This document shows, piece by piece, positions 1-38,888 of a stretch of 38,888 bases of DNA. The number at the start of each line of letters is the position of its first letter. The first letter of the stretch is position 1. The notes under the pieces were generated by a model. It saw nothing but the letters and a program-made list of their open reading frames with translations, did no database searches and was not told the origin of the DNA. A program made the position numbers and the translations under genes. Source of the DNA: Asterionella formosa (Eukaryota); assembly GCA_002256025.1 (NCBI GenBank), contig NKIB01015011.1:1-38888 (forward strand). The letters run 5' to 3'.

Positions 1-1231
1 GTTGCTGCATTTGAACCCCTAGGCAAAAATTAAAATATTGCTTAGGGTTGCGAAAAATCCCTGGAATTAAGAATTTAATTAGCTATTTTTGAATGACGTG
101 ATTCCATTTGAAATATTTGAATCAGTGGAAATTTGCGAATACGTACATAGATTCCTTGTCAAAATCGCTAAATATATATATTGACACTCTAAGTCGCTGA
201 ATGTATATATATGCTAAAAATACGATCAACATGTATGCATGGACACTCTATACTCCGATTAACTTTTTTATGTAATATGCATTGAATCCGTTCGACACAT
301 TCAAATCGTTTAATATATACATATATATATATATATTTAGGTTCTACATCGCTTCATGTGCATACACCAGTACTACAATGTATTCTCCTATCGACGAATA
401 TGGGTCATGTATACGACCCGGCGGCTTGGCAAATATTTAAAAGTGCACCCAAGGAGCGGTACGCGTACCGGTATGTCCAATGATGATCATCTACTGGTAC
501 CCGTCGTGAATATAGCACCGGACTGTCAGTACACCCAAGAATATGTTACATGTTAATCCAATGTGGCCAGCGTGGGTTTGCACGACCTCGCAAACCAGGC
601 CAATCAAACAGAGGAATGTACTTCATGCTCACCAATCACCATATTATGTATGTGGAAGCGGGTACTTACAATGGAATTTTTCGGACAGGAGATTTTAGGA
701 CTAAAAATTCCGGCACACGACTGCCATTCCAATGATGACGTTTCGGCACTTAATAATTCTGATTCCGATATTTTGGCGACCGTAGAAAAGGCCGATTTTG
801 TCGAGTTTTTGGACGACGATAGCTAAACGTTGGCTGGGTCTGACGGCGATTTAGATACATAGGTAACTTTCAAATAGCACCAGATATATAACTTCTGGCG
901 AGAAACTGCAGAAAGGAACTTCGGTTTTTTTACTATGCCAAATAAACAGATTTCCCCCGAAATTTCGAGTCTTTTTAGCATAGCTAAAAAACCGAAGTTC
1001 CTTTCTGCAGTTTCTGACCAGATCCTATATACTGACGATATATAGAGTGAACCTACACCCCTACTTTGTCCGAAGACAGTATTTAAGCATATGGAAAGGG
1101 TGTCTATTGGTGAAAGCTCCGTTGAGCGTTATACATTTTTAATTTACACTTGTAAAGTACGTGTTTGATTAGTCTGACTGAATATTATTTTATTAACCCT
1201 ACCTCGAGCTAGGGGTTCAAATGCAGCAACC
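1..1231. mobile_element. Non-autonomous DNA transposon, family A copy 1 (Kolobok-like: TTAA target, GG..CC ends)
   Basis: GTTGCTGCATTTGAACCCCTAG (1-22) is the exact reverse complement of CTAGGGGTTCAAATGCAGCAAC (1209-1230), followed by C and TTAA (1232-1235). The left end is clipped by the window. No transposase ORF. Confidence 0.8.
901..1015. repeat. Perfect 30-bp internal inverted repeat of family A
   Basis: AGAAACTGCAGAAAGGAACTTCGGTTTTTT (901-930) pairs with 986-1015 across a 55-bp spacer. The homologous IR lies at about 3722-3836 in copy 2. Confidence 0.9.
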
Positions 1232-1235
1232 TTAA

Positions 1236-1463
1236 ATGCTAATAATTTAATTACAGAAACCGAGTGTATGTTCACGTCTATGTAACTCATAAAAAAACGG
1301 GATTTTTTCGAGTAAGCCGACCCTCACGTAGAAATTTGGTATGTTGGCTACATAATCCTTCAAATGCGAACAGTAAAGACACTTGTGGTGCCGGCGAATC
1401 TATGCAAGTGTTACTAGACAAAGGGAGTACCAGGTACCCCCTGGTACCAGGGGTACCTGGTAC
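1236..1463 (+). repeat. Family B remnant, interrupted at TTAA by family A copy 1
   Basis: 1236-1435 aligns by eye with 4723-4921 (shared TTTTTTCGAGTAAGCCGA and GGTATGTTGGCTACATAATCCTTCA). It ends in a 37-bp near-perfect palindrome at 1427-1463. Confidence 0.8.
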
Positions 1464-1764
1464 GTGGTACGGTACCTGTGCCATTTCTGTACATTGTGCA
1501 GGCGATGTGCAAGGTACCTCCTGATTCCTTTACTTGGGAATTCTGATGCCTTCTCTATTATAACGTACCCGGTATGTACACCTAGACGCAAGTGTGCGTA
1601 CGAGGTCGGTGGTGTAAATAAAAGTTGTTGCCGATCAGAGCTGGCGTTGTGGCAATCAAGGCTGTCGTTGACAGCTCCGCCGGCATGCTGATCACAATCT
1701 AAAGAACCTCCTCCATGCTCCGTCCTTTTTCCTTTTAATACTATTCTGTGAGTGGCAATCAATC

Positions 1765-2857: not shown

Positions 2858-2861
2858 TTAA

Positions 2862-5299
2862 GGTTCCTGGATTTCAACCCTAGGTTAGAGGTAGGGTTAA
2901 AAATTTAATATTGATGCATCAAACACGCACTTTTCACGTGTAAAATAAAAATGTATATCGCTACCACTCGGAGTTTTTACCATTGGACACCCTTTCCATA
3001 TGCTCAGATACAGTCATTGATCGAAGTAGGGCAATGGCTGGATGCAATTTTTGGGGCACCGGGTAGACCCGCCCAGTAGGCCTAGTATTAGCATAAATCC
3101 TAAACCTGTGGTATATAATATTTGCGCCTGGATTGGCATGTTATTATCACATCCACCATGTTGTTCTTATTCTGTTGTTTTACTCAACAATAGAACATTC
3201 TCCCGTGCCGCTTCAAATAGATTTCTTTCCTCCATGAGTAGCGCTACTATTAAACACCGGAAGCGGCACAGGATGACACAATTTGCTTTATATATGAACT
3301 ATTTTTTGTTGGGCAAGGAGATCCACGCCTACATGACCATTGGTTTCACACTCTTGAGCTTGATACTGGGCAAGCTGGAGTTGAAACTGTATAGGAATGT
3401 CTCAAATAAGATCATATAGTAGTTGCAATGAAGATACAACAACGATTTCACACCCATCGCTGCACAATGGACTTCGATTTCATGTTCGCCATGAATGAAT
3501 GCAACGACAACAACAAGGAGATTGCGGATTCATGTGTATATAAACTTTATGCATATGTGTGTCATTTATATAGAACATTTTACTTAAGCTAAAATCATGT
3601 TGTGCTGGTAGCTAGAATTATTTTGTACTGGTAGCTATGATGGTTACCCAATGTAGTTTCATGATGGATCCAGCCATATGATATGCCAACTCAATATAAT
3701 GTCAGTATATAGGATCTGGCCAGAAACTGCAGAAAGAAACTTCGGTTTCTTAACTATGCTGAAAATAGTGGATTTTACCGGGCCAACTCATTTGTTTGGC
3801 CTATTAAAAAAACCGAAATTCCTTTCTGCAGTTTCTCGCCGAAAGTTAACTTCTGGGGATATATGAAGATTACCAACATACTCAATCCTTCTTCAATTTG
3901 TGCCAAAGATGAGCTATCGTTGTCCAAAATTCAACAAAATCGGCCTTTTTAACAGTCTCCAAAATGTCGGAATCAGAATCACTTATCGCCGAAACATCAT
4001 CATCGGAATGTTGGTCTTGTGCTAAACATTTTAGTCGTAAAATCTCCAGTACAAAAAGTTCCATTACGACGAGGGTTCGCTGCATTATTCATATTCTGAT
4101 TGGTTATACTTACATCGGTTCGATTGGACCGGTTTGCAAGGTTTTGAAATACCACGCCGGCCACACTGGATGCACATGCAACATTTTCTTGGGTGTTGGC
4201 GGATGCGTATATCCACTACTACCTGGTACCACCTTGGAGAGAGTTGGAGTAATGAGTACCGGGTGGTCGGAGTGCCTGGTACTCCTCCCTCTGGTTGAAA
4301 ATAATTGCGGCAATTGTTAAGATTTCTCCGGCTCAATTTTGGTTCCTACGATTTTTTCTGGCTCAATTGCCCTAATGTGCGCAATCGCATAAGCTACAGA
4401 TCCATTTATAATATATATAGCAAATTTAAAACTGGCAAATACATATCAAAAAAAAGTTTTTGGGCTTTTTCGATTTTCACTTGTGGCTATCTCGAGCAAA
4501 ATGCGGATGCATGAGGACCCGTGGTCAATGTAAGTGCAATAACTGTAGAAAGCATACGAAAAGACAGCTACTGTGTTCATGGTATAATTATGATAGTGGC
4601 TCGTTCTATTTGGTTTCCTGCAAATATTTGAGTGGCCGGCCAATATAAAACGGCATTTGGCGATATGCATATGTAAATAATTAATAGATGTATGTTAAAT
4701 TGGTTTCGAATAGTTTATTTAGATGCTATTAATTTAATTACAGAAACAGAGGGTATGTTCACGTCTATGTACCTAATAACAAACGCATTTTTTCGAGTAA
4801 GCCGATCCTCACGACGAAAGATGGTATGTTGGCTACATAATCCTTCATATGCGAACAGTAAAGACACCAGTGGTGCCGGCGATTCGACGCAATTATTTTC
4901 AACCAGAGGGGGAGTACCAGGTACCGGTAGCTGATTTTTGGTTATACCGATAGCAATGTAGTAGTATGCGTACCGGTACATTACTAGAATGCATTTTCAA
5001 ATATTTTTCCGAGCCGCCGGGTTGTAAGTATGACACATATTTGTTGATCGGAGTATACTACTGGTCGAGTAGATATATATATATATATATATACATTTAG
5101 CGATGACAAATCTCTCTATATATATTTAGGGCATTTGAGTAGTAATCTATGAAAGTACACGAAAATTTCCACTGATTTGAATATTTCAAACGGAATCATC
5201 GATATTCAAAATTAGCGCATAAAAGTTCTTAGTTACAGGGAATTTCGGCAACCCTAAGCAATATTTTAATTTTTCCCGTAGGTTTAAAATGCAGCAGCC
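2862..5299. mobile_element. Non-autonomous DNA transposon, family A copy 2 (Kolobok-like), inverted relative to copy 1
   Basis: TTAA at 2858-2861 and 5300-5303. Imperfect TIRs GGTTCCTGGATTTCAACCCTAG / GTAGGTTTAAAATGCAGCAGCC. Both ends and about 3690-4160 are reverse-complement homologs of copy 1. It carries extra segments at about 3060-3680 and 4275-4921. Confidence 0.8.
4275..4921. mobile_element. Family B MITE-like element nested inside family A copy 2
   Basis: 33/34-bp inverted repeat: CCTGGTACTCCTCCCTCTGGTTGAAAATAATTGC (4275-4308) with 4889-4921. Absent from family A copy 1. Related fragments at 1236-1435, 2760-2857 and 5304-5530. Confidence 0.6.
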
Positions 5300-5303
5300 T
5301 TAA

Positions 5304-6768: not shown

Positions 6769-6809
6769 AATTGTTTTTTTGCTTGTTCGTGTACATACTT
6801 CCTGTTTGT

Positions 6810-11278: not shown

Positions 11279-11614
11279 TCAAACCGTCAACATGTTTCTG
11301 TCTGTTTCAATTTGAACACAATCAAAATGATAAATAGTTGGATGAAGGTATGCAGGTGGGGAGCACATGGTGAGTGCCGCTCTGACATAGTCAATATCTC
11401 GATTGGGGCAAAGGAGAATTGCGAATGAACCACGAGTTTCCAGCACCGACACTTGGCAACCGTGGGGTTCACATTCACCAAAAAGGCTTTTTAAAGAAAA
11501 CAATAATATGGTTTGAAGTTCACGAGGATCACTGATAATGGGGTTCGATTGGATCAATAAATACGATGATTCCATATCGATGATTGTCCTTCTGAAGTTT
11601 ATTCGTTTTGTCAT
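11279..11614 (-). CDS. Rpp14/Pop5/Pop8-like RNase P/MRP subunit (putative), up to 111 aa
   Basis: Pattern L..SLKSLFGE...VSVLE..GSFAILLCP.....VRAALT resembles the Rpp14/Pop5 family. The true start may be the second Met. Confidence 0.55.
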   Translation of the reverse strand: MTKRINFRRTIIDMESSYLLIQSNPIISDPRELQTILLFSLKSLFGECEPHGCQVSVLETRGSFAILLCPNRDIDYVRAALTMCSPPAYLHPTIYHFDCVQIETDRNMLTV

Positions 11615-11665
11615 TTTCCTATGTTGTAGACGGAACAGTCAAGCCAGTATCGTTTTCCTCCGATA

Positions 11666-12540
11666 GCAATCCCCACCCTATCTATCGTCTTGCTTTTCGA
11701 TGAGAACTGTGGGTGTCTAAGTAATTTTTGGTTTCTTTAAGTAATTATTATATTTTATTTAGGGGCAATATGGGGCACATTGGATTTTTCGGCAATTCCC
11801 GCTCCAGCTATCGTCTTGCCATTCGGGTACTTCTAAGTAATTTTTAGTCTCTAAGTAATTTCTTAAGTAATTTTTATTTAAGGGCAATATGGGGCAAATC
11901 GAATTTTTCGGCAATAAAATTGCAGATTTTAGCATGACAAACAAAATAACGGTAATATGCATAGAGATGGTACAACAAGCGTAAAACACACGAGAATGAT
12001 TGTAACATGCAACGTCAACGAAAATTGAACATGATGTTTGGAGCTGGAGCGGGAATTGCCTCAACAATACCCTTCTCGGCGGCTGCTTGCCTTCTCGTAT
12101 ACATGTGTACTTGGCTGGGATGGCACTCGTAGGGTGACCTTCTCGCAGTGCCGGGGGCACCACTCGTATGGTCAACCTACTCGTGCCACCCAGCCTCGAA
12201 CACATGTATACTCGCAGGCAAGAGACCACCTCGGGTGTGTATTGCCTTCAGCAGTCAATTTTAGGTTTGAGCAGGAGGGACCATCGAGCAATGTCAGGAG
12301 TAGAATTTTCATGGGAAAAAGTTTAGAGACATCAAAAATGCATGGACCACCGAATATAATGGTACCGGTATGCATGAAAAATAGTCACACAAGAATGATT
12401 GTAACAAGCATCGAAAATTCGACACGATGTTGTTAAGCAACCAAAGTATGAAACAGAAATCGAAAGGTAAGTCGTGAAAATGACAAGCAGGGAGTAGAGT
12501 AAAACGTGAAAAAGAAAATGGGTCAGAGGAAAAATCGTGT
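11666..12540. mobile_element. Family C repeat, copy 1 (GGCAAT-rich tandem subunits, inverted motif, central hairpin)
   Basis: About 125-bp tandem subunits at 11666 and 11791. GGCAATTCCCGCTCCAGCT (11791-11809) is inverted at 12042-12060. 11792-11957 is nearly identical to about 36053-36218, and 12385-12500 is homologous to about 36285-36410. Boundaries approximate; no TSD seen. Confidence 0.65.
12065..12244 (-). other. 180-nt imperfect hairpin with periodic symmetric 2x2 internal loops
   Basis: Stems CAATAC/GTATTG, CTTGCC/GGCAAG, GTATACATGTGT/ACACATGTATAC, GGCTGGG/CCCAGCC, TGGCAC/GTGCCA, GTAGG/CCTAC, TGACC/GGTCA and GTGCC/GGCAC, punctuated by CTCG opposite CTCG. Confidence 0.85.
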
Positions 12541-13561
12541 GAAATTTTGTCAACGCATATTCATTAACAATTGTCAACTCACACTTTTTGTCGTTGCAAC
12601 GAAATTTCAAAACTTTTCAGATCAGGCCTGGCGGATCAGAAACCGATGCCTGAATGGATTAAGAGGCAATGCTGGTTTATGAATTGATTTGGACTTGTGG
12701 TTGAGGAGGTGTTGGAGGAGCAACAGCTTGATAGCGGAGGTTTCTTGGTGCTGGCGGTGCAGAATTCTGGCAGTATCCGGCAGGAGGAGGAGCAGGATGC
12801 GTCGAAAATTTACTGGCTGATGTGGAAGTTTGTGAATTGGAAAATTGAGGAGGAAATTTTCGATTAGGTTGATAGGGAGCAATGGAGTGATATGTTGTTG
12901 GTGCTGCACATTGATGGCTTCATTACCTTAAACATACTACTTCATCCGCCCTTTGAACAAGGCGCAATGTGTCGAAGCCACAATGTTTTTCGTTATTGAG
13001 TAAACTTTTCCTTTCTTGTCATGTGCTTTACTCCGATATTTCTTTTCATAAAGCAGGCATTATTTGTTAACATGACAGAACGATTTCAAATATATTTGCC
13101 ATGTATATAGTTATAAAATTTGTAAATATATAAATATATGAAGTGTCATACATTTATAAAAATCAAAGGCACTCTCAATATGGAACATCTGGTATTGTTG
13201 AAATGATCATATTTGCATATAGATAATTCGAAAACATTCAATGCATTATATGTCCATTGTTTTCCACAACTTCCTGTACCGGTAGTGTTTTTTTGAAAAT
13301 TGTTTGCATCAATTTTTTCTACGTCCGTTGGAACTAATTATTTAGACCATTCAATTGGTGTACTAAGTCATAACCCATTTGTATCATTATTTATATGCGA
13401 GGATTTTGGTAGCAAACTGTTTAAGCCCCTTTTTTGGTCGGGAGTTCTTCATGTGTACTGGTACATCATACGACAATAACATTTTATCAAATATTTACCA
13501 CAGAGTACCAGCAGCAGGTAGGAAGTGATAAACTGGGGGTACCAGGTAGTCAGAGTACCAG

Positions 13562-13895
13562 GTAGTAAGCGAGCAACAGAACACCATATGTTCATGACAG
13601 TTGCTACTGCAGTGGGACAGTAAATCATCTTAGGTTTAGGATGGTATGATCATAAAATTGAAAAAGGATAGTCGGAGTAGTGAGCACGCAACAGAACACC
13701 ATATGTTCATGACTGCTGCTACTGCAGCAGGACAGTAAATTATCATAGTTTCAGGATCATATGATTGTAAAATTGAAAGAGAGTAGTCGGAGTAGTAAGC
13801 GAGCAACAGAACACCATATGTTCATGACTGCTGCTACTGCAGTGGGACAGTAAATCATCACATTTTTAGGATTGTATAATTGTATAATTGAAAAC
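13562..13895. repeat. Tandem repeat, about 3 x 115 bp
   Basis: Units start at 13562, 13677 and 13792 and share GCAACAGAACACCATATGTTCATGAC...TGCTACTGCAG..GGACAGTAAAT. Confidence 0.95.
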
Positions 13896-14760: not shown

Positions 14761-15419
14761 AGAGCACAGCAGTGTAATATGCATGTTCCGCCAGCGTAGT
14801 GTTTACACAATAAACATCGTCTGTAAATAAAAAATATCATGAAAATATGATCAAGGGTATTGTACGCTAAGTGGCACAGGATTTTCACATATATGATAGT
14901 TTTTCGATCAAAAATATGATCAATGTATCATATAATTATGATCATGCAGTAAACTTTTACCGAGCTTGAAGTATGATGAGACTATCATAGTTATAATACC
15001 ATTGCATCATATAATTAGTTAAACATGGCCATATGATGTGTATACTTTTGCATGCCGGCATAAATACAGCTATAACAAGGAAAAACGACACAACGATGAA
15101 CGTGATGGCTGGTTGTTGAGGATACCGGTATGTGATATGCATCAATCCATATCACAAATCATATTATAGCGATGTACATATCAACGCATCCGTATACTTA
15201 GATCCTACACACCATATAATACTATCATATTAACTGTTGCCTTTTATTGTATACATTAAAAGTCGAATTTATATATTAAGTAACATACATTATGACTTAC
15301 TTTTTTATTTATTTTCTGTGATGTATTGATAACACTTGCGCACATATTTTTTCGTATTTGTTTGTCATTGTATTATTTTAACATGATCATATTTTGATCA
15401 AAATTAAATCACAAACATT

Positions 15420-16580: not shown

Positions 16581-17394
16581 CAAGCAAATGACAATACGGA
16601 TATCAAATATTTCCTATGAGCAAACAGCAATGAAAAGAGCCACTTGCTTTCGCTCTCTTGATGGTATTAAAGATGCAGACAAGTTCAATAGTAAATACAA
16701 GTACAGCATGCCAAATGCAGAAACGAGCGACATGAAAAAGAAATTGTAATCAGAATCATTCTATAACTATAGGTATGTGGACAGTAGTCTGTTACATTTT
16801 CGTATCTCCTTCTATGCTGAATCTCAATAGTAGATGTAGTATTATTTGAGAATTTAAAAAGTCAACAAGAACAAGTAGAATGTGTTTGTTCACGGGTTGA
16901 TTGGCAAGATTGTAATGCTGGTGGTCGACGAAACGGATTCACAATGTGCACTGTGTGCGGAACCATTACGAGTTCGAATGATTTCTTCTCTGTAAACTCT
17001 TAATTGAATGATTATGAACAAAGGTTCACTGCACATGACAATTACTCAAAGATATAATTATCAAATGACCAACAATTGAAGACGTTGTTATCGGAAACAA
17101 TCATTCCACTTGTCATCGCTAGAATTTCGTTGTTGTTGCAAAAATCAGAGTGATGACGGATGGAAATGACGAGCCAAATTACATTACTTAAGCTGGCACA
17201 TTATCCTACCAAGAAATTCGAATACAGGAATCTAATAGAAACAATACATATAATAATTAAATATATGTAGTCAAAAGGGTTACTATTTAAATTACAAGGG
17301 CATTTATCAAAATTATTAGATGATATAACGAAAAATTATGATCAGATGATCATACTAATCTTATGATGCATCATGGAAATATGATAGTTTTTAT

Positions 17395-20300
17395 TTGCAG
17401 ACGGACCTTTCAGTCACGGGGTCTACAATGACAGTTAAAAAAGGTCGCGGAGGACATATTTCATTTAACAGAGAGACCAATGGAGTTCTCTATTATTTTG
17501 AAGCAAGTCGCGCGAGTTATGCCGATGTCGTATCCATGGCTATTGCCCCATTGTCCCAGGGGGCCGATAGTACCAAAAACTTGTCTACAAACACCCATAC
17601 AGTTATGAGTGGGGAGGACAAAATGAAGTCACAGGACATCAACGAGGCACACGATATCTACGGGCATATTGGGGAAGCCGCACTACGTGCTACGTTCAAA
17701 GCACTGAAGATAGAACTTACTGGTACCCTCCAGTCCTGTGACGGATGCTCTAAGGCAAAGACGAAAGCAAAGGCGGTTTCAAAAGTGTCGACTGTACAGG
17801 CTGTACTACCCGGTGAACGGATTTTTGTGGACACTTCAGGGCTGTACAGAAAGTCCATTGTGGGAAGCAATTACTGGATACTTGTGGTTGATCAATTCTT
17901 TGGAAAGTCATGGAGCTTTTTTGTTAAGAAGAAGAGTTTACTATCCAAAATTGTGGACGAGCTACTCATCAAGCTATTTGCAGCAAAATATGTCATCAAG
18001 TATCTACGATGTGATAATGCAGGTGAAAATCTCGAAAATTTGTCATCTGTATGCACCAAGCATGGTATTCAGATTGAATACATGGCACCAAATACACCTC
18101 AGCAGAACAGTGTTGTTGAGCGCAAGTTTGTCACCATATGTGATAGAAGCTGTGCTGCTATGATCAATGCAAAGCTAAATGATGAGTTTCAAGGACTTCT
18201 TTGGGCAGAATGTGCCAACACAATGACTCGAGTGACAAATGTGGTTTCGAATTCAAGAAATATCAAGTGTTCTGATTGGCTATGGTATGGGAAACAACCT
18301 ACAATCTATGAACATTTGATCCAATTTGGACGAATTGGATATGTCACCATAAGAACTCCTGTGAATAAGCTTGATGATAAAGCAATTAAATGTGTCATGA
18401 TTGGATACTCTGAAAACCACTCAGGTGATACCTACCGACTCTTTAACCCTATAACCAAGAAGGTGATTCAGAGCCGTGATGTAAAATGGATAGAATGGCA
18501 TGGAGAAACGAAACCTACCGATGATCTGACCATGTTCAAGACTGGGATTGATGAAATTGAGTTTGAGGAGGAACTTGACCAACCTGTTGCACCAGCTCCG
18601 ACTGTCATCCCAGATGATGAGACTGGATCACTTTCGACTCTTAATGACTAGCAGGTCTCTGAAGCAGGGAGGAATGAAGCTTCAAATACTTTAAAACCTG
18701 CTATTACAAGAGCTGAACGAGAGCTCAAGAAACTTGGTCATGAAACTGGTGCTCCAACGATGTCTGCACTACGTTCTGGAAGATTGCATACTATTGTAGA
18801 TGATGATCATCATCTGGATTCTAAGCCTACTTCATCCATGGAGGTTCATTACATCTACAGCTCTACACTTGCATCAGATCCAGGTGAACCCAAGACCTAC
18901 AGTGCGGCACTGAAAGCAGATGACAGAGAAAATGGATTCCAGCAATCAAAAGTGACATTAATAATTTTATAAAACGAAAAGTCTGGTCAAAATTCCCACG
19001 ATCAGAATTGCATGGACGCAAACCACTTGGGAGTCGATGGGTCTTCAAGAAAAAGAAGGAACAAGACTTGACTACACGCTACAAGGCACATGTGGTCGTC
19101 AAGGGATATGTCCAAATCCCCTGTGTCGATTTTACCGACTCGTTTGCACCTGTGGCTACAGATACAAGTATCAGAGTTGTCTTTGCAATCACCATGCACA
19201 AGAAGACATGGACTTTGGAGGTCATTGATGTCAAAACATCCTTTCTTGTTGAGTTTGGCTTTGACGACAACAAGGTTGTCTCAGAATATTGTATTCTTCT
19301 AAGTAAAGCCATGTATGGAACGGTGCAGGCTGCACGACAGTGGTACAAGAAACTTGTGGAGCGTCTGATTCTCATTGGAATGAAACAAAGCAAAGTGGAT
19401 CCATGCATTTTCTTCTTGAAACGTAATTTGAAATTGGTTCTAATTGTTTGTATCTATGTTGATGACTGCATTGTTGCTGGAGAACAAGCCGATTTTGACT
19501 GGCTTAAGGCTGAAGCCAAGAAGCTTTTCACCATAAAGGAACTCGGACCAATCAAGAAACATTTAGGAGTTTGGTATGACTGGGGAGAGGATGCTGATGG
19601 AAGATTTCTTGAAACTACTATGGAGGATTTCGTTGAAGGAATGTTCGAAGATTATAAGAATCTCTTTGGAGGTTATCCCGCAATTGCACCAACTCCCGGA
19701 TTGCCAGGTACAAGTTTGTCCAAGAATGATGCCCAAACTGTTCTACATAGTGAATACAGATCCATGGTTGGAAAAATCGTATACTTTGTAAACAAGATAT
19801 CTCCAATTTGTGCCAATGCATGTCAAGAATTGTCTCAGCATCTGGAGAATCCAGGAGAGGCTCATTGGAAGGCAGTTGAACGTCTGTTGGGATTCTTATA
19901 TGCAGACAAGAAACATCGGCGTAGTATGAAGATGCGAACCCCAAAAGAAATGCGCCCAATGGATGTTGTTGACAGTGCATTTGCAATTAACCCTGATACT
20001 CGCAAAAGTACAAGTGCATATCTCGGAACTATTGGAGCACACTCCTTGGTGACTTGGTCATCCAAAGGACAAAACATTGTAACAACATCAAGCACGGAAG
20101 CCGAGTATGTCAGCCTAAGCGACGGTGTCAAGGATACAATATTTGTTACAAATCTATTGGATGAGGTCTGCCTACTATGTGGAACTGCCAGCAATAATTG
20201 CTGAGGATAACACTGGAGCGATTTTCCTAAGCAAAAACAAACAAGTTGGATCAAGGACAAAGCATATTGATGTCAGATATCATTTTATACGTGAGAAGAC

Positions 20301-20466
20301 TGAAGATGGATATGTTGTTGTAGTCTATGTACAAACATGTGAAAACCCTAGTGACCTGGTGCTGTCAAAGAATGTAACTCAGAAGGTGCATGAATTGCAT
20401 GCATATGATATTTGCAATGGGACAATGGATTGTTGGAACTGGAACAGGGAGGATGTCAAGATTTAG
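17395..20466 (+). pseudogene. pol: Copia pol pseudogene (pre-integrase HHCC, rve integrase, RT, RNase H)
   Basis: H...GH..CDGC; VDTSG / RCDNAGE / VERK (DDE); WVFKKK; YVDD; SSTEAEY; RTKHIDVRYHFIRE. In-frame stop at 18649-18651, frameshifts near 18930 and 20170, and an apparent deletion after DVKTSFL. Confidence 0.93.
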
Positions 20467-20892: not shown

Positions 20893-21430
20893 TTGCAGTC
20901 AGACTGCAGAAGAATGTAACAGGTTGCAACTATACCAGAACAGAGTAAGTACAATATGATGTACCGGTAGTCGGATTATTTTACATGCCGGGCATTCTTA
21001 GGGTCTTCGTCGCAGCGGTAGTACCCTGTAGTATACACATCATTGATCAATAGTTTTATGTACCGGTAGGTATTAACATACCGGTAGATACATATACTGA
21101 CGCACGTTGTGCACAGAGAGTTGTCCTGACGGGACTGCCTAAACCGGTATAAAACGGTATTTATTACCAGGAGAGCACTTGATGCAACACAGCAACAGAG
21201 CATGCATGCTTTCCGTTGTTTGTTACACCATTTCCTACTCCGTCGTTAAGATGATTCCAAGCGTCCTATAAAGAACACAATGCTGGCGGCTGATGTTGAA
21301 GGTACCAACCTATACTACGAGAACAACCCCTTTAGAAACGACCAAAGCCCGATGATCGCACCTAAGTAACCGAGCACCAATAGTTTGATTACATTAATTT
21401 CGAAGAGAAATTCGAAGCACCCGACAACAA

Positions 21431-25299: not shown

Positions 25300-26385
25300 T
25301 GGTAAGCATTTTCAAAATCAAGCTGCTTAAGGAATCATCGACAACATGCAGAATAATTGTTGATTTTTGTGTTTGTCTTCAAAATGAAGGCTTTGATGAG
25401 CTTAACAACAAGCTTGATTCTTGAAAATCGTTTGTTTCTGTGACTGTAGTGAAATTTAAACGCCATTGGTTATGAATTTGTTTCTAGCTGGGAAATTCTG
25501 CCCTGGAAGCATTGTAGATTATTTTTATTGTCAAAGAAGTGTGTGCCAAACCATTCATGCCAAATCGACATGCATCTCAAATGATTCTTATAGAGTTCAT
25601 ACCTCGGAAATCTATTTTCATTTTTCTTCATATAAATGGCACTTAAAGGCGTTGATTCACTTGGAAGATTCAAAGATTTGTTACTTTCCATTGATGATGA
25701 GGACTTTGCAGAGGATGAAAAATTGAAGATTGACAAATGATTCAAAATGGTCTGTAGGTGTTGTTGTCGAACTAAGCCATCAACTCTGTTGTTCAACTGT
25801 GAAAAGTTTGCTCTCAGTTCAGGACGAAAGTTTGTAAATCGACATCTGAAACAGGCAAAATACGGTCAATTCTTAGATCCACTGGAGAGCAAATTAAGAA
25901 AAGTAAAGGCGGCAGAATTGGTAGCTGGGTCAATAGATTCAGTTTCTTTTTCGATAAATGGAAATGTTTGTTGCAGGGTTGTTGAAGGTTTGATGTGATC
26001 TCATGGAAAAAACTTCTTTTTTCACCTGGATGGCCAGCCTTAATATTCATGGCTTTCATTGGTAGCTTAGCTGATCAAACATCAAGTCAAGTATCCACAT
26101 TCCAATTTCCAAGGTTGTTGATGTTATAGCCATTACTTTAATCCAATTCTACTTGAACTGAACCAGCCCATCGACCAAATTGCACGAAATGTTTTGAATT
26201 AGCTAATGCCAAGATGTCTGCAATTATTCTTCATGTTACTTTCATATGACTGATCAGTTACTGCAATGGTATTGTCGAGGCGCTGAGAATCTTTTAACAA
26301 CTTAATGTTGAACTAAGCTTGGATTGAAGTAAAATCAAAGGATTCTGCTTTTCCACTCTGCATAGATCTTGCCATTAAATAAAAC
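25300..26385 (-). pseudogene. Crypton-like tyrosine recombinase relic (Ndc10 domain II + GCR1_C)
   Basis: FYLMAR..FDFT...*FNIKLL..DNT..Y..LGI / SKHFVQFGRWAGS...LGNWN...*SAKLPMKAM...AGH / FPFIE..AAFTFLNLL, then YEL..H....IWHEWFG..ISQLE / WR / RFSRIKLVVKLIK. Many stops and frameshifts. Confidence 0.75.
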
Positions 26386-26689
26386 CACAGCACAAAATGA
26401 AGTCTGACGCGTCGTTTGAATACCGGTATAATAATAATGACCTCTTCTACTGTACATAATACATAAAGTTCTTCACAGATATTCCCATCATATATAAATA
26501 TTTAGATAATAATGTTCATCACGAACAAAAAGTCGCTTCCTTCTTTCCATCCTATTTTATCCATCTTCTTTTGAAGGTCGCCGTCAATTACATCGCTCGT
26601 CGTTTCTATCCTTTGGTCCCGAGGAACAGTGATTGATCTCTGAGCACTCATATAAAATACAATACTATACAAAGGTCTTCATTCGAAAT

Positions 26690-28493: not shown

Positions 28494-29052
28494 TTAAGCC
28501 AAAATGATGCCAAGGGCAAGCGCCATGTCCTTGTTGACTTCGATGGCAATCTGAGCTTCAGCAGCCGCAATGCTTCCGGATTCAGCTGAGTTGAATTGAG
28601 CCTTGGCAGCTTCATAGTTACTGGCGATAACTGCGGCATCAAGATTTTCCAACTTGACAGCTTCTGGGCAAGAAATCTCCTGCGAGCAATAGAATTGGTG
28701 AGATTGGAATACGGCAATGGCTCATTTAGTGTATTCCAGGACTTACAGTGTGCGAGTCCGGATGAGTAAATGCAAAGCCCCCGGCAATAAAGTACTTTTC
28801 CGTTTCTCCGTCTCCATGGTCAATCTGAACGACTCCAGGAGCAAGCTCTGAGACAGTTGGAACGTGGTCAGCAGTGACTCCGTACTCTCCTTCCGTTCCA
28901 GGAAGGATCACAGATTCCACTTCAGCGGACTTGTAGATGGTGTCGTGCGGCAAAGCAAAGCTCAGGGTCATCTTGTTGGCAGCGACGGCTTCTGTCGACA
29001 TGAATCGCGCCACACTTCGGCGAATGATCGGAGCGGCGATTCTGGACAACAT
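28494..29052 (-). CDS. ATP5F1D: Mitochondrial ATP synthase F1 delta subunit, 163 aa, 2 exons (29052-28747, 28679-28494)
   Basis: Transit peptide MLSRIAAPIIRR; VILPGTEGEYGVTADHVP..ELAPGVV; YFIAGGFAF. A 67-bp GT-AG intron (28746-28680) leads to EISCPEAVKLENLD...AEAQIAIEV. Confidence 0.95.
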
Positions 29053-29529
29053 GGTGAAGCAAGACAGACAGGCAAGCAAATGCACTGGTGTGGAGTGTGG
29101 AGTATAGAGTGTACCGGTACTATGTATATTATTAAATACTAATTCCTGTACGACCAATAAATATATAGCCATACTGTGTACCGGTATGTGTAAGCGTGTA
29201 AGGTATATCTGTTTGTAGTACGAGGTAAATACTGTATGTAGAATGATTGATTGTTGATTTTTCTTACCAACAGCCACTATGTAGCTACCGGTATGTACTG
29301 CACAGTACATAGGAAGGAGTCCGGGAGTCTCCCGGTGGTCTAATGAATCGGAGCGAGATGTTCATTAACCCCAGACAATTTGATTCGTGACGTCAGCATC
29401 CACAGGGTCAACCCACGTAGAAATCAACGTCCTTGCGCTTTCCTTCTGGGATCTTCGTTCGCCGCTGCCGTTGTCGGAAGATGCGTTGCTTGTAGCGCAA
29501 ATTGTAGCAGGTGTATTTAACGTTTGACG
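29053..29529. promoter_or_regulatory. Bidirectional promoter region between ATP synthase delta and beta
   Basis: 477 bp between divergent start codons. Contains 3 x TACCGGTA, TGACGTCA (29388-29395) and several palindromes. Confidence 0.6.
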
Positions 29530-31337
<1,808 letters not shown>

Positions 31338-31554
31338 GCGACGGGCGTTGCAGCAGATACCACTTATCATGTCAAATTCCCCCAAAAAGTCTAGAATATT
31401 TTCAGCTTATAGAATTCTATCTGTTGATCCATGATACTGATACAGTCTTCAAAATTTATAGTTTCAATCAACACACACCTCACAGTGAATTTCAGTTACC
31501 TGCTGGTATCAAATAATCCATCTGACCCCATGTTGTTTAGTTCCAGGTACCTGG

Positions 31555-32295
31555 TACCACTTTATGAATTCTGGCTGGACTGGTCGTACCACTTAAAAAC
31601 TGCAAACCACCACTATGATGACTTTTGAACTGTAAGGGAAACACACGGTTTGAACTTAGGTGGCAAGATAGTTTGATTATTGTCATGAAGGCAAGCCACC
31701 ACTATGATGACTTTTGAACTCTAAGCCACCCCTTAATGGAGTTAACACACGGTTTGAACTTAGGTTGCAAGATAGTTTGATTATTGTCATGAAGGAGTTG
31801 TTCAGATTTATATAGCAAGTAAATACTTGCGAACTTTTATTGTTGCATTGTGCAAGTTGTTACATACTTATTAACGCCCAAAGGTTGCTGTCAATGCGAA
31901 ATTGCGAAAAATGGATATTTTCACATTTAATCTATTGAGCTGGCATCGCCTTTTCTATATGTGTATATGTACAACAAGGATAATAATATTCTTCTAATAG
32001 AATTAGGTTAGTAAAATTAAATGTGGGTCCGACGTCATTGTGCTTTCTAATACACTATGCATCAGAAGAATTTGGTGATGATGCAAGCGCAAAAACCATA
32101 CCAAGTACTGTACCACGCATAACAGGCACAGTAATACGAAAAGAATTTCTGTAGTATAAATGGAGTAAAAATAATGACGGTTTGGGGGGGAGGGGAAATA
32201 TATTCATGTACAGATGGAAAAATAAGCACTGCAAGCTACCACTATGTCACAATCTTTATGAATTTGAAAATTAGATCTCATTTGAGTATACTAAA
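31555..32295 (+). mobile_element. Family D repeat, internally deleted copy
   Basis: 31555-32050 is homologous to 33270-33690 and 32140-32295 to 34545-34700 (AATTCTGGCTGGA, CGCCCAAAGG.TGCTGTC.ATGCGAAA, CGGTT+poly-G). Internal ~90-bp duplication starting near 31600 and 31691. Confidence 0.75.
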
Positions 32296-33269
32296 TTAAT
32301 TGCTCCTTAAGTTAAAAATAAAAAAGCATGGTGCTTACTCACGGGAGTGAAAATTCCAACGCAAATGCGTTATTTGCATTACTAATAGGAGATTCCATGC
32401 CTATAGTATGCATCCCAATAAGTTTTACCTAAACGCGTTACCACTTTGTTTATGAACCTTTTTTCCAAAGTTACCTACATGACGTAGGATTCTGTTTTGA
32501 CTTCTTAGAATGTCGCAAGCACAAAACGAATTATTCTGCTCATCTTTGAGTTAGTATATATTGCGTACGTGTATTAATATACCAGTATATACCCTGCACA
32601 CTGACCCTTGAGACAGTAAAGGTATACCGGTACCGGTATAAGTCATCATTCATTCGTTATTATGACAGCAACAACTATAACAAATCATTCACAATTTGAC
32701 GACAGTGATCATGTCATCTCTTTCCCTCATTTATCATGGTATACTGACAAATTCCCAGATAGGAATCACACTATTTTATTTGTAAAAATACCAGTAGCCT
32801 AATAAAAATATTTTGCATTTTTATTATATTTTTGTTGTCCTACATCTTAGTCGATGGGCTGACAAGAACATTTAGGTTTTCCTGGAAACTCTTATTTCTG
32901 AACACTGCTGTCGTTTCGTTGTATGATGGCTCCCCTTCCTACCGGTACCTGGTACCGGTAGGCTGAAAAATTAAGACATCTCCTAACCCTAATGTAATTA
33001 GAAGTTTGTTGGCTGCTTAAGTTTTAGAAAGATGTCATTTTCCTGCTTAATTTTAAGCAAGACCTCATTTTCCTGCTTACGTTCAAAGTTTCCTCAGTGG
33101 GAAGGCCGGCTTGCATGCATTTTACACCCCATCCCAAAGGACATAAACGTATACCGCCTTTAGTTTTGCGGCGAATTTTGAAACGTGAATCGAAAATTCA
33201 CTTTCATGTGAACAAGCACCTTTTCTGTATGTCCCTAGTACCCCGGTATCCGATATAACCATTGTACCA

Positions 33270-34700
33270 TACCACCGTATAAATTCTGGCTGGAATCATG
33301 CTGCTCAAGGTGGTTGTACCACCTAAAAACTGCAGGCCACCGCTATGGCGACTTTCGAACTGTAAGCCACCGCTAAACGGAGTAAACGCACAGTTTGAAC
33401 TTAGCTTAAAAGATACGCTATTTATCATCAAGAACGAATTGTTCAGATTTATTTAGTGAGTAAATACTTACCTACTTGTATTGTTGCATTGTGTACATTA
33501 CTCATTATGTATTATCGCCCAAAGGCTGCTGTCCATGCGAAACGGCAAAAATTGGATATTTTCACTATTACTCTATTGAGCAAGCATGACCTTTTAGATA
33601 CATATACATGTATGAGAATATTGCTCAACTAGAAAACTAGTTAAGTATCCCCAATTTATTAATATGGCTATGATGTCATTGCGCTTTCTCTCGTTTGATC
33701 ATATTCACTGATGGTAAAATTCAATTAGGAATTCCTGGCACGCCTGAATTATTAGTATAAAAATTATATGCAAACACAACAATCACTCATCATCCATCAC
33801 AATACTAATCATCATGACCTAGAAAGCACCTTGACAAGGCAAAGACTTGTCTCAAAAGAAGGTGACACCTGAAGAGCTAGCTAATCAGCGTTCAGATTTG
33901 TCTTAATAATGTGATTAGCTAGACGATAAGAAGGCTAGCAATGGTGGCAAATGCCTTATGGTGCTTTTTCTGGGACAGTATTAGCTAAGCAACGCATTTT
34001 CCCTTGGATATCTGTTAACCAAGTGAAAAATGAATTAAAACGAAGTGCTAAACTAGAAGGTATGGCTAGTATTCTGTGTACTACTTCTTGTTCATCCCTA
34101 ATTCAACCATCATCTGCAACCATCATGTCTACATTGTGCGACACCTGAACTTTGTGGCCCTACTAAACCACTTTTCTTGAACGCTGATGGCAGCTTTGCC
34201 TTGCTATTTCCCAGCAAACTCATTCACAATTCATACAAACGATCAGGTGATTTACCGGTTCCACAAACAAGGCAAGCTCTAATTACATGACTTGACAACA
34301 CCAATCACTGTGGTGGCCAGAAGCCGCCATCCCCACTCCATACACCTCCTCCTACTGTGGTTGTTGTTGCTTAACCTCCTCCTGTTGCTATTCTGTCTCC
34401 TGCAACGACTGCTACTGCCGATCCACAATTCCATGATGAAAATTTGAGACTCCGCATGTAGTAATTGGAAGCGAAGTTTGTGATTTATGTAATGCACTTG
34501 AAGAATTCTCTAGCAAAAGTGTAAAATGTTAAGTAATAAGAATAGAATTTTTGTTCAGTAAACAGAGTAAAAATAAGCACGGTTGGGGGGGGGGGGGTAA
34601 TATATACAGACACAGATAAAAAATATGCACTGTAAGTCACCGCTATGCGACAATCGTAGTGACTTTGGAAAAATTAAATCTTCATGTCTCGAGACACTAA
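33270..34700 (+). mobile_element. Family D repeat, longer copy with transposase N-terminus-like relic
   Basis: Homology to 31555-32295. The internal NGG(K)MPYGAFSGTV..RIFPWISVNQVKNELKR (about 33940-34050) resembles N-termini of diatom DDE transposases. No clear TIR or TSD. Confidence 0.6.
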
Positions 34701-36052: not shown

Positions 36053-37800
36053 GCAATTCCCGCTCCAGCTATCGTCTTGCCATTCAGGTACTTCTAAGTA
36101 ATTTTTAGGCTCTAAGTAATTTCTTAAGTAATTTATATTTTAAGGGCAATATGGGGCACATCGAATTTTTCGGCAATAAAATTGCCGATTTTAGCAAGAC
36201 AGCCAAAATAACGGTAAATGTTGGTTTTTTCAATTGGTCAAAGAACACCACGGAGAAGAGAAAATTTGTGACCATAAAAAAAATCACACAAAAATGATTG
36301 TGACATGCGAATGTCGAAAATTGCGCATCATGTTTCTTTTTGCAACCAAAGTATGATTCATCAACAACAAAGGTAAGCAACGAGAAGATTGTTCAAGTAG
36401 GGAGAGAGCAAAAAAGAGAGAAGGAAAGGAATATAGATTGGGTGAGAAGATCGTTAACAAAATATATGTTTAAAACTTCAATGTCACAAAAAACTTACAC
36501 TCAGATTTTCCGTCATGTAATCACAGGCAGAAAATGAATTTTTCAATATGAAGGAGAAGTTGGGGTAATTGTATGTGCCGCTGGAAGTTGGTGATGTTGT
36601 GGTGGATGGGTGGATGGGTGGATGAGTGGGTGCTGATGATGGAGTTGGCTGGTGGTGGTAGTAGACCGGTGCTGGTTGACTGCTGGCTGGAGGCGGCATA
36701 TGATAGTATCCATGAGGAGGAGGAACAGGAGGAGGAGCATGGGAGTAGTAAATTTGTTGTGGTGGCGCCAGTGGAGGATGAAAATATGGCTGCTTGCACT
36801 TTGCGCTTAGTAGTATTTGTCACTGCTCTTTGAGAGAAACGACGGCTTCTAGTTCCCGTTGTCATTGTAGAATAATCAGTATAATAGAATTGTAATACGA
36901 TTGAATTAAAACAGAGGAACTATGTATATTAGAGTATCATAAAAAGCACCCTCAAACATGCTTCCGAGACATCATATCTGATCTTCACATAGAAAACATA
37001 CTAAAAAATAAATTTTTGAATAATAAGTGAACATAATGTCTGAAAATAGCACCAAAAATGTGACAACGATGGCGCGAAATTGACTTCTTACCCGCGCAAC
37101 CCATGAATCTTGTTCCCCAACAGTCCAATCAACGATATTATCGATGAGCAATCATCCGATTCGTCAGTATCATCCAACAGATCAGATGATGAATAATGAA
37201 ACTTTTTGAGATCAATTGAATTGGGAACAATGATTTTGGCACCACTGCGACGAAGTAGGTTTGATGTCACAACATGAATTCCACAAGAAGACAAGTCGTC
37301 CAACAACCAACCACATCCGTTTGAAGATGAATCGCTACTAGAGTCATCAAGGAACACATTTTGCTTCAAATGAGGCATGATGGTGAATGATTTTCTGTGT
37401 CAAAGCTGTATTTCCGCTCTCATATTTTAGGAAACAAACAAAATCGATATATACAACAGATTGGTGAATACTGGCTGGATATATTATAATCAAATCTGTA
37501 TAATATATAAAATGGTTTCCTTATGTACTAGACCCCTTGCCGATTTCAGCAATCCCAGGGCTGGAAAACAGAGGGGCAATCGGCATCAGTTGTCTTGCCA
37601 AAATGCTAACATATGAAATATTGAAAATATATTTTAATGATGGGCAATATCAGACCTTTGGCAATTTTCGAGGTGAAGATAGGAAATAAACCAAAATTTT
37701 TTTATATGATTGGCAATAGTAGGCTAAAATTGACATTTATGCTAAATTTGTGGGCAGTAGGTAAGCGAATGACGCGACGATAGCTAGAGCGGGAATTGCC
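36053..37800. mobile_element. Family C repeat, copy 2, bounded by a 24-bp inverted motif
   Basis: GCAATTCCCGCTCCAGCTATCGTC (36053-36076) versus GACGATAGCTAGAGCGGGAATTGC (37776-37799), one mismatch. The left part is homologous to 11792-12500. Confidence 0.65.
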
Positions 37801-38013
37801 TCAACAATACACGCCCGAGGTGGTCTCTTGCCTGCGAGTATACATGTGTTCGAGGCTGGGTGGCGCGAGTAGGTTGACCGTACGAGTGGCGCCCCCATAA
37901 ATGTCAATTTTAGCCTACTATTGCCCATCATACAAAATATATTTTGTATATTTCCTATCTTCACCTCGAAAATTGCCAAAGGTCCGATATTGCCCATCAT
38001 TAAAATATATTTT
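37624..38013. repeat. About 118-bp inverted repeat enclosing a flipped half-hairpin
   Basis: 37624-37741 is the near-exact reverse complement of 37896-38013. The spacer contains 37805-37896, which equals the reverse complement of 12153-12244 at 88/92 positions. Confidence 0.9.
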
Positions 38014-38888
38014 GATTCACCTCGTTTTTGTTCGTCTCCTGAAAAGTGGACTCCGGCAATTCACCTTTCACCATGCCAATCGTCGTCCATCATGACCGGT
38101 TTGAAGCGAAATCAGTTCCGCGATGACGCCAGTAGCAACTCTTTGCCTAACGGATGCGGTTGATTGTTGGATTGCTTGTCTTCTCGAGGTATTCATGTAG
38201 TCGCATCGTCCATATTTCGTCGGACGAACGATGATATCGATACATCTGATGTTGGTGGCAAATTTTTGCTCCGGTCATGTATGTAATGATGCTTAACGGA
38301 TATTCTACCGGTACTGGCAGTCATCTACCGGTAGTCAACATACGTACGTGGTACTAAAAACAACCATGCATGGTCTAAGCTATACTTTAACGCTTACTTT
38401 GAACACGTTATAATATTATCTCTGTAGACTCGGTATTATTTTTACGAGACCTGAAATGTTGAATTATATGGTTGACATATTCATTAATTTTACGTACCGT
38501 ATGCCCGATTTCGTCCTCACAAATATAGTTCTCACTCTATCTTGCCTGCCTTTGCTCTATTCGGGCTTGCAATAGGCAACGTTCGTCTTTCTTTTATCCC
38601 ATAGTCTGCTGCTTGTTATGCTAGCTAGTTAGAGCGGATCGGTGAGTACAACAGTGAAATACTGAATGTGGATTGTAGATCCTATTTATCGACTTTCCGA
38701 TTTGATTGCTTCCGTGGTTTGTTTTGATCGCTTCCATCGTTGTTTGTCGCTACGCACTGTCGTTTTGTTTCGATTGTACATATCTACATAAGAACCAATG
38801 CATTTATCAATGACTACTCATTGAAGATGTGGTATTGTGCCGTTGTTGATCGTATTTGTTGATTTGTATAGTCGTTGACAATGATGTC

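Follow-up and report, generated by a model that had tools for sequence, protein, structure and literature searches.

An over-represented TA-bounded palindrome in Asterionella formosa as the probable excision footprint of resident pogo-like transposons

Tc1/mariner transposons excise to leave footprints that consist of the first or last 2–4 nt of the element between two TAs, those of Sleeping Beauty being TACAGTA or TACTGTA (PMC6943129, in the text available). Footprints of ZB span 0–3 bp (PMC7913693) and those of Passer, a member of the pogo family, 0–4 bp (PMC9976928, available text), and heterogeneity is the rule among published footprints (PMC1925063, PMC4423477, in the portions accessible). 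The pogo-like DD groups 33–40 include Fot1, as set out in the accessible part of PMC7325037. For the cyanobacterial palindrome HIP1, section 3.4 of PMC4390886 describes a model of biased point mutation with near-matches that deviate at outer positions. The promoter motifs ATACCGGTAT/GTACCGGTA are described for oomycetes in the available text of PMC10031896. Among the matches listed in a literature search that left subscription journals mostly outside, we find no paper on TACCGGTA in diatoms or on genome-wide footprint words.

Abundance of the palindrome and its gain at TA

We analyzed a 38,888-nt stretch of A. formosa DNA (contig NKIB01015011.1, the window), in which an initial annotation had counted 19 copies of TACCGGTA against a rough expectation of about 0.5. 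All 19 are recovered at the same coordinates, and on one strand the expectation is indeed 0.5 at order 0; Markov backgrounds of orders 1, 2, 3 and 4 give 0.2, 0.4, 0.7 and 4.4. The excess drops to 1.35-fold only at order 5, where the 6-mers of the model consist of the motif itself. The spaced variant TACCWGGTA does recur, with eight copies in the window (1428, 1454, 4220, 4915, 13540, 13556, 31548 and 32946), one coordinate having been given as 4916 rather than 4915. Genome-wide we find 28,528 copies of TACCGGTA against 1,718 of the reversed word as control, and 26,886 of TACCWGGTA against 902, together ≈55,000 copies; TACCGGTA, at about one per 2.4 kb, is the top over-represented 8-mer in the sampled DNA. 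As had been described, copies of TACCGGTA lie in unrelated repeats and in unique DNA, and they do not literally trace to a single TE family; their production by TE excision is most likely.

Comparison of paralogous sites reveals a bare TA, that is, an allele 6 nt shorter, at 20 of the 68 TACCGGTA sites for which a paralog exists versus 12 of 1,212 control TA-N4-TA sites (p = 2e-19; these sites are drawn from repeats and not all are independent), and among 79 distinct 6-nt indels the 14 that create TACCGGTA form the top class. Alleles shorter by 7 nt are found at 5 of 24 TACCWGGTA sites, and alleles shorter by 5 nt at 4 of 12 TACSGTA sites versus 1 of 37 for TACWGTA (p = 0.01). The filled allele is frequently the rarer state, with one filled copy against 20, 8, 8 and 6 empty ones. 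Since paralogs carry a bare TA at the position of the motif, gain is a 6- or 7-letter insertion, and what enters the single TA is a fixed word for each motif, CCGG or CCWGG, along with a second TA.

The window itself bears this out, as a check for new gain of the motif, suggested in the initial annotation, finds bare TA in paralogs at 466, 32625/32631, 38326, 13540 and 13556 (motif sites carry no strand). The copy at 466..473, in a dispersed repeat, is a 6-nt insertion at a TA that is single in three paralogs, while the two TACCAGGTA at 13540..13564 are clean 7-nt insertions at TA, both absent from L165 and L149 and present in L133. In TACCGGTACCGGTA (32625..32638), two units with a common TA, one unit is missing in L074, L075 and other paralogs, and at 38306..38333 the copy at 38326 is empty in L151 and L118, that at 38306 being decayed in L151 and absent from L118. 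Paralogs of a repeat copy at 12363..12370 differ, with the motif doubled in L012 and absent in L159; that at 13277..13284 is intact in L165, CpG-decayed in L133 and L149, and missing in a second L149 copy. The copy at 4971..4978 is common to two paralogs and predates the copies, that at 15123..15130 is ancestral to its repeat family (present or mutated in four of four paralogs), and of the three units with common TAs in TACCGGTACCTGGTACCGGTA (32940..32960) the last is also found in paralogs. TACCTGGTA at 4220..4228 has no informative paralog.

These alleles bear directly on the initial reading of the motif as a HIP1-like highly iterated palindrome. A ratchet of that kind, in which a methyltransferase and biased mismatch repair turn near-matches into TACCGGTA by point mutation, would suit a CG-core palindrome at this spacing, and PF00145 is found at four loci in the genome, of which two have full-length domains of bacterial type and one is HhaI/Dcm-like by sequence, a candidate methyltransferase. 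However, the gains are 6–7-nt insertions at TA, substitution cannot make the length variants, and the near-matches are mostly CpG decay rather than outer-position precursors, the commonest being the internal C>T/G>A product (150 versus 20 expected). Nor is methylation decay of CCWGG seen, as TACTAGGTA occurs 9 times, like other neighbors. The empty-site insertion alleles and the CpG-peaked spectrum contradict the ratchet, which we regard as very improbable; the data do support the broader suggestion of a sequence-directed mutational or repair process, the process being insertion of CCGG and a second TA at TA rather than HIP1-like substitution. The nucleosome signal also proposed finds no counterpart, with pair distances declining smoothly to 600 nt and showing no nucleosome-scale periodicity. 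An origin of TACCWGGTA by CpG decay of TACCSGGTA was considered and rejected, the sister product TACCCAGTA occurring once against 176.

Slippage or template-switch duplication of local sequence might be read from chains such as TACCGGTACCGGTA, which make up 53 of 381 tracts, but the other 328 are single units, the empty alleles have no nearby CCGG to copy, the inserted letters are not derived from the flanks, and adjacent W units are random in orientation (18 same, 15 opposite). Slippage is largely refuted for first units and scarcely credible as the general source, although some chain units may still come from it.

Resident TA-targeting families and the origin of the scars

The inner letters of the scars are those of resident TA-flanked element ends, CCGT/ACGG for family A and CCAS for family B. 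A PF13358 profile search gives no match. Family A (TA|CCGT...ACGG|TA, 2.46 kb) is present as many near-identical copies and MITEs and encodes a DD35D transposase that matches PF03184 (1e-22) with D-(35)-D spacing. Ten copies are ~99–100% alike, with different flanks, all at TA, and with single-TA empty paralogs; exact ends number 116 versus 5 for a control. A second ORF of 145 aa has no Pfam match, and a second MITE family is likewise CCGT-ended. Family A is a recently active element, with TIRs, TA duplication and a DDD/E transposase. Family B has TA|CCAS... ends (530 versus 40 for a control), a GG|TA target and an ORF that appears DD37D-like by eye. The nearest atlas clusters of its protein are DDE_1, at 0.94; at E ≤ 1 the ORF is without a Pfam match, and BLASTP shows no similarity to family A. 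The DDD reading of family B, made by eye and from the atlas, is thus weaker than that of family A. Two family B left ends with their TA lie on the plus strand of the window, TA|CCACTTAAAAAC at 31587..31602 and, in a second element, TA|CCACCTAAAAAC at 33317..33332; a TACCTGGTA in GG|TA context (31548..31556) immediately precedes a family B end.

Flank context links each motif to one family. GG|TA flanks 5 of 34 family A insertions and 49 of 434 TACCGGTA (p = 0.57, a match that amounts to absence of difference at n = 34), and 33 of 49 family B insertions and 200 of 352 TACCWGGTA (p = 0.17), whereas the cross-matches between each family and the other motif fail (p = 2e-6 and 4e-17). The pattern stays without scar-adjacent flanks (family A, 3/32; TACCGGTA, 22/401; family B, 19/34; TACCWGGTA, 90/232). 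A scar-like word adjoins 16 of 50 family B ends versus 1,294 of 64,703 TAs, and a minor variant in the window, TACCCGGTA at 1566..1574, has a family-A-like flank context. GG|TA is also the context of 16 of 24 CTCCC MITEs, so that context alone fails to single out family B. In the window, a Stowaway-like MITE with CTCC(C) inverted ends (4282..4914) has CCTGG-TA as its left flank and TA-CCAGG as its right, with a nested TA-CCAGG-TA-CCGG-TA (4915..4929; sites 4915 and 4922) on its TA duplication, and a chain of TACCWGGTA units (1428..1462) lies on the TA that ends a CTCCC-ended (Stowaway-like) MITE.

We consider it probable that TACCGGTA and TACCWGGTA are excision footprints of these two resident TA-targeting, pogo-like DNA transposon families. 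The product series, together with the available text of PMC6943129, suggests that excision, by staggered cleavage, would leave 3-nt 3′ overhangs, the element's first letters, on both flanks. The terminal CGs of the family A overhangs, CCG, would pair perfectly, so that repair by NHEJ would nearly always yield TA-CCGG-TA. Minor products would be TACCGGG(G)TA and, where the full 3 nt overlap as in Sleeping Beauty, TACSGTA. CCA overhangs cannot pair, and therefore the A would be retained and GG added, giving TACCWGGTA and a G-stutter series. The one-sided series comprise 208 TACCGGTA, 17 with an added G and 4 with GG, and 158 TACCAGGTA, 27 with G, 7 with GG and 1 with GGG, with no TACCTGGGTA. As the family B scar would create CCWGG|TA, the preferred target of B itself, chains would grow and arrays would self-seed. 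Old TACCGGTA scars outside promoters would decay through CpG transitions, and a yield of ≈55,000 scars, when exact ends number a few hundred, would presuppose long cumulative activity. Against this reading, family A insertions of today lack the upstream bias of scars (away 6, toward 5, none 10, versus 175:47; p = 0.07, small n).

A host enzyme or repair pathway could instead stamp a fixed word into TA breaks without an element, the likeness to element ends being secondary or the transposase merely nicking or cutting. The very uniform product and very large copy number are consistent with this, as is the finding that, among the paralogs of element flanks examined, none pairs an element in one copy with a scar in another at the same site, where few are expected. 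So too are the few scars from other TA elements: resident CAGT- and CTCCC-ended elements give only a weak signal (TACATGTA, 15 versus 16 expected; TACWGTA, 1.4-fold; TACTAGTA, 4-fold), and high fidelity and scale therefore require family-specific explanations. We find stamping unlikely, as the two words each follow the end letters and target context of a different resident family, and the canonical 3-nt footprint for CCG ends is present as the minor 7-mer; we know of no enzyme with such a template.

Position relative to genes

No copy lies inside any Pfam-supported coding frame of the window, in line with the initial claim that genes are free of the motif; the copy at 12363 is within a 133-aa frame inside a repeat, a frame left out of the Pfam scan, and those at 29112, 29179 and 29286 are inside the stop-to-stop frame of ATP synthase delta, ahead of its likely ATG. 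A coding proxy of 169 kb contains 7 TACCGGTA and no TACCWGGTA versus 203 and 175 in 351 kb, a TACCGGTA density of 41 versus 578 per Mb. Three of the 7 are within 20 codons of the ORF start, and the other 4, all translated and 3 of them Pfam-scanned, show no demonstrable 2-residue insertion. HIP1, by contrast, is abundant in coding DNA too.

The clusters that had been noted upstream of genes hold for bestrophin and the ATP synthase pair, with three TACCGGTA each, and not for ATG16, which has a single copy (26421..26428, 270 nt upstream of its ATG at 26690). Those of bestrophin (20962, 21061 and 21079; 20962..21086), without a paralog, are 350–470 nt upstream of the ATG at 21431. The divergent promoter of ATP synthase delta (likely ATG 29052, minus strand) and beta (likely ATG 29530, plus strand, with an intron at 29564-29850) holds 29112, 29179 and 29286 (29112..29293), 60–234 nt upstream of the delta ATG and 244–418 nt upstream of the beta ATG. 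With gene starts approximated by ORFs, TACCGGTA occurs 18.5 times per 1,000 TA in the 1 kb that precedes long ORFs versus 4.9 downstream (p = 2e-9), and TACCWGGTA is likewise enriched (16.2 versus 3.6). Scars are really about four times denser upstream of genes, and a promoter role is only a candidate.

Selection on a promoter element, as proposed for M94 of Phytophthora infestans, might by itself uphold the abundance of TACCGGTA, and is compatible with a footprint origin as co-option. Beyond the upstream enrichment, intact and decayed copies number 110:40 upstream versus 93:101 elsewhere (p = 2e-6), and TACCGGTA is over-represented in oomycete promoters (PMC3597505 and PMC10031896, available text). 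Contigs of runs X8, X16 and X18 were compared by length and gap counts only, and by this arithmetic the ATP synthase promoter copies appear common to strains ~2% diverged, X16 and X18 allowing at most 0 and 1 missing TACCGGTA. The X8 contig over 25976-26580, around 26421, differs solely by 6 missing letters, and the X18 contig is 12 nt shorter over the bestrophin stretch 20962..21086; these gaps are not localized, and the copies are possibly absent. A metagenome search with ATG16 found three distant loci (41–57% identity), with no orthologous promoter among them. However, TACCWGGTA, differently spaced, is equally enriched upstream, which suits open-chromatin targeting, and Passer, a pogo element, shows a preference for TSSs (PMC9976928, available text). 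Many copies are in old repeats and copy-specific, slower upstream decay would also be expected if promoters are unmethylated, and the main-text tests of PMC3597505 cover six motifs, of which M94 is not one. We consider selection quite unlikely to be the principal explanation.

An excision origin recasts what looks like a HIP in a eukaryote, or a universal promoter motif, as a cumulative record of transposition, ≈55,000 scars versus a few hundred exact element ends, and offers a concrete rule from end sequence to scar, CG self-pairing. If true, DNA transposon activity is far above what surviving copies suggest, and it contributes heavily to the small indels in promoters of this clonal freshwater alga. 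Motif discovery in stramenopile promoters may pick up scars, and caution is warranted, as work on oomycetes has put TACCGGTA forward as a candidate factor site. More tentatively, a main origin of the TA-bounded palindromes prevailing in stramenopile promoters could be high-fidelity transposon scars, with the terminal letters of a lineage's own pogo/mariner families dictating its top word, one family here self-seeding and some promoter copies perhaps co-opted.

Comparison with known systems

TACCGGTA resembles HIP1 (GCGATCGC) in being a palindromic 8-mer found genome-wide at ~1 per 1–2.5 kb. It differs from HIP1, the gain of which is modeled as substitution with a cognate methyltransferase (PMC4390886, available text), in arising by insertion, in avoiding coding DNA and in decaying at its CpG. 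Oomycete M94, from a different lineage of stramenopiles, matches TACCGGTA letter for letter and is likewise enriched upstream of genes, and M93, TACATGTA, is a sister word with two different central letters (PMC3597505, available text); the oomycete papers interpret the word as a transcription factor site, and the string 'transpos' is absent from their accessible text (PMC3597505, PMC10031896). Two observations touch on the stramenopile-wide reading, that TACWGTA occurs in a contig of a distant relative and that TACATGTA and TACCGGTA are both listed as oomycete 'binding sites'.

Family A, placed without a tree, is like the pogo-like DD35D elements in its TA duplication, short TIRs and DDE_1 domain (PMC7325037, accessible part), but has the additional 145-aa ORF, and family B, DD37D-like by eye, escapes Pfam. 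Re-insertion at or beside an old footprint, giving nested scars, is described for Stowaway in Triticeae; there the available text of PMC1925063 concerns one intron in plants and varied footprints, whereas here fixed words occur genome-wide. As in Tc1/mariner footprints, TA, the element's terminal letters and TA stand at a former single TA, and TACSGTA, the 7-mer, is exactly what CCG ends should leave by a Sleeping Beauty-type excision. Unlike the products of Tc1/mariner assays, the dominant 8-mer, and the 9-mer of the second family, are far more uniform, and unlike published Tc1/mariner footprints they exist as ≈55,000 heritable copies, with the scar of one family apparently seeding its own target.

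Abundance and gain of the two words

All 19 copies of TACCGGTA, the 8-letter palindrome with CCGG between two TAs, that were counted in the initial annotation are recovered by an exact count of the window, and the over-representation claimed there holds against Markov backgrounds, with 0.2–0.7 copies expected at orders 0–3 and 4.4 at order 4. The motif is real and genome-wide, with 28,528 copies in the 68.4-Mb assembly versus 1,718 for the reversed control, as is its one-letter-longer cousin TACCWGGTA (26,886; control, 902); sequencing runs that match this assembly are labelled algae, freshwater or lake. We find 217 copies of TACCGGTA where 4.2 are expected (order 2) in a 535,650-nt sample comprising the window and 60 stretches, most taken from long contigs. 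Across 520 kb of stitched contigs, the 169 kb in ORFs of at least 200 codons contain 7 TACCGGTA and no TACCWGGTA, versus 203 and 175, respectively, in the 351 kb outside. The 535-kb sample is also 2.6-fold enriched in TAGCTA, with CTAGCTA a top 4-nt indel span, and these may reflect another TA-bounded insertion or slippage unit.

The initial annotation proposed a HIP1-like process, after the cyanobacterial highly iterated palindrome; gain by substitution fails here, since paralog alignments show TACCGGTA gained as a 6-nt insertion at TA. Of 79 distinct 6-nt indels whose flanks match well in all-against-all locus alignments, 14 convert TA to TACCGGTA, more than fall in any other class. The paralog comparison suggested in that annotation bears out gain of the motif: with alignments of at least 99.5% identity dropped as the same place, a 6-nt-shorter allele is found for 20 of the 68 TACCGGTA sites with a paralog versus 12 of 1,212 other TA-N4-TA words (p = 2e-19), these sites coming from repeats and not being fully independent. 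Among these 68 sites, 23 are also intact in some paralog and 16 are one base different in some paralog; the inserted letters are absent from the flanks of empty alleles, and filled alleles are in many cases outnumbered (1 versus 20, 8, 8 and 6 empties).

Within the window, clean empty paralogs exist for the copy at 466, one of the two units at 32625/32631 and the copy at 38326, and for both 7-nt TACCWGGTA units at 13540 and 13556. The copy at 38306 is missing from one paralog, those at 4971, 13277, 15123 and 32953 are common to paralogs, and 4922 and seven promoter sites are without a paralog. Other strains give indirect hints. A contig from one of their sequencing runs differs from the window solely by six letters missing somewhere within 25976–26580, a stretch that includes 26421; gap counts in the ATP synthase promoter indicate that its three copies are all or mostly common to strains ~2% diverged. 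The commonest near-match of TACCGGTA in the 535-kb sample is its CpG transition product (150 versus 20 expected), and alignments show this product in paralogs of intact copies.

Two resident transposon families as probable sources

We consider it likely that TACCGGTA and TACCWGGTA are excision scars of two pogo-like, TA-targeting families, A and B. A PF03184 profile search of the genome returns 93 places. Ten family A copies are ~99–100% alike, every one ending in ACGG|TA with flanks all different; a full copy spans 2,464 nt with TA at both sides and TIRs that start CCGT, exact ends number 116 genome-wide versus 5 for the control, and a second MITE family likewise starts CCGT. The transposase has a D-(35)-D spacing, included within pogo groups 33–40 in the available text of PMC7325037. 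The family A element of contig C2689 also carries, opposite to the transposase, a second frame of 145 aa (L066:1673–2107, +) that includes a Cys/His cluster, GRSCEQHACCG, and is unmatched in Pfam at E ≤ 1.

Family B starts CCAC or CCAG and has 530 exact ends genome-wide (control, 40), two of them at window positions 31587 and 33317. The family B protein matches 154 places in the genome, one of them an open, transposase-like 779-aa frame with a CCAG end (L217:353–2689, −; contig C14068); the protein finds no match in Pfam, is placed beside DDE_1 clusters (0.94) by a protein-cluster map, and has a putative DD37D triad, as read by eye. A TACCGTA 7-mer at window 38495–38501 has a −5 paralog, and in a paralog (L194) a family B element sits at the adjoining TA. 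A third pogo-like family (L025–L027) has TA|CAGT ends and TIRs of ~31 nt; its expected scars, TACATGTA and TACWGTA, are hardly enriched.

Flank contexts pair each word with one family. GG precedes TA at 5/34 family A ends and 49/434 TACCGGTA flanks (p = 0.57), and at 33/49 family B ends and 200/352 TACCWGGTA flanks (p = 0.17), while comparison of each family's ends with the other word's flanks gives p = 2e-6 and 4e-17; the contrast persists once scar-like flanks are removed. TACCSGGTA shows the A-type context and TACCAGGGTA the B-type. The GG context is also that of CTCCC-ended MITEs (16/24), although CC cannot derive from the letters at their ends. Against the scar reading, paralogs of element flanks reveal no site with both an element allele and a scar allele, CAGT- and CTCCC-ended TA elements give little comparable scar signal in the 535-kb sample, and the footprints described in the literature generally vary (PMC1925063, PMC4423477).

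Proposed excision scheme and promoter bias

In Tc1/mariner excision the cut ends carry 3′ overhangs, and the footprints left by end-joining retain the element's first or last 2–4 nt between TAs (PMC6943129). For family A, 3-nt CCG overhangs on both flanks would pair through their terminal CG, and one fill-in base per strand would then give TACCGGTA. Full overlap would instead give TACSGTA, which occurs 82 times versus 38 expected (535-kb sample) and has −5 alleles at 4/12 sites, compared with 1/37 for TACWGTA. The CCA overhangs of family B could not pair, and retention of the A with two templated G would give TACCWGGTA; we infer both the cleavage offset and the repair pathway. Extra G falls solely on the strand carrying the third base in both words: in the 520 kb of stitched contigs, forms with 0, 1 and 2 added G number 208, 17 and 4 for TACCGGTA, those with 0, 1, 2 and 3 number 158, 27, 7 and 1 for TACCWGGTA, and TACCTGGGTA has 0 copies. 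A 4-nt CCAG overhang would account for the 9- and 10-mers as well. A family B scar would end in CCWGG|TA, B's own preferred context; since 16/50 family B ends adjoin a scar-like word (2% of all TAs), 53/381 tracts are chains and adjacent units show no preferred orientation (18 to 15), such scars may act as self-seeding hot spots.

In the 1 kb upstream of long ORFs there are 18.5 TACCGGTA and 16.2 TACCWGGTA per 1,000 non-coding TA, compared with 4.9 and 3.6 downstream and 5.0 and 4.4 elsewhere; the decayed form is flat (6.7 upstream, 5.4 downstream and 5.4 elsewhere). Open-chromatin targeting, which is reported for Passer, an element of the pogo type (PMC9976928), combined with unmethylated promoters would yield this upstream excess of intact words, as would selection. 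Such an upstream excess is not seen among present family A copies (6 away, 5 toward, 10 none; p = 0.07 versus scars), which counts mildly against simple targeting.

In the window, the genes for ATP synthase delta and beta, both of mitochondrial type, lie head-to-head (29052–29530) with a 477-nt shared intergenic region, and beta has an intron at 29564–29850. A copia-type pol (17359–20466) occupies three consecutive frames with breaks. Inverted repeat copies flank both an Rpp14/Pop5-like small gene below the Pfam cut-off (11279–11638, −) and the small gene for mitochondrial ribosomal mL59 (1765–2190, +).

Comparison with known systems

Every defining feature of a Tc1/mariner/pogo footprint that is testable here is found, save a three-state allele. 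HIP1, as described in the available text of PMC4390886, is characterized by gain through substitution, which TACCGGTA does not share. The genome contains four C5-methyltransferase loci, one predicted from sequence to be HhaI/Dcm-like; two nuclear genes (L021:451–1935 and L022:937–2940) encode full-length bacterial-like C5 DNA methyltransferase domains, the nearest structures to the former being M.HhaI and Dcm-like. A different TA-bounded word, TACWGTA, of the Sleeping Beauty footprint type, is enriched in another alga, a distant relative whose 9.2-kb metagenome contig (L071; ATG16 relative, 41% identity) holds 8 TACAGTA/TACTGTA versus 1.7 expected (p = 4e-4).

TACATGTA is a Tc1-type footprint. 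In Phytophthora infestans it is promoter motif M93, listed alongside M94, which is TACCGGTA (PMC3597505); the six motifs tested in that paper's main text include neither, and its supplement contains oligonucleotides labelled M93. ATACCGGTAT is reported as a promoter motif in Plasmopara (PMC10031896), and the string 'transpos' is absent from the available texts of both papers. Searches of openly accessible papers list no report of TACCGGTA in diatoms, nor of any genome whose leading word is a footprint. Events of this kind are already known; what is new is the scale, the fidelity and the family-by-family match with a pairing rule, together with a possible re-reading of the oomycete motifs.
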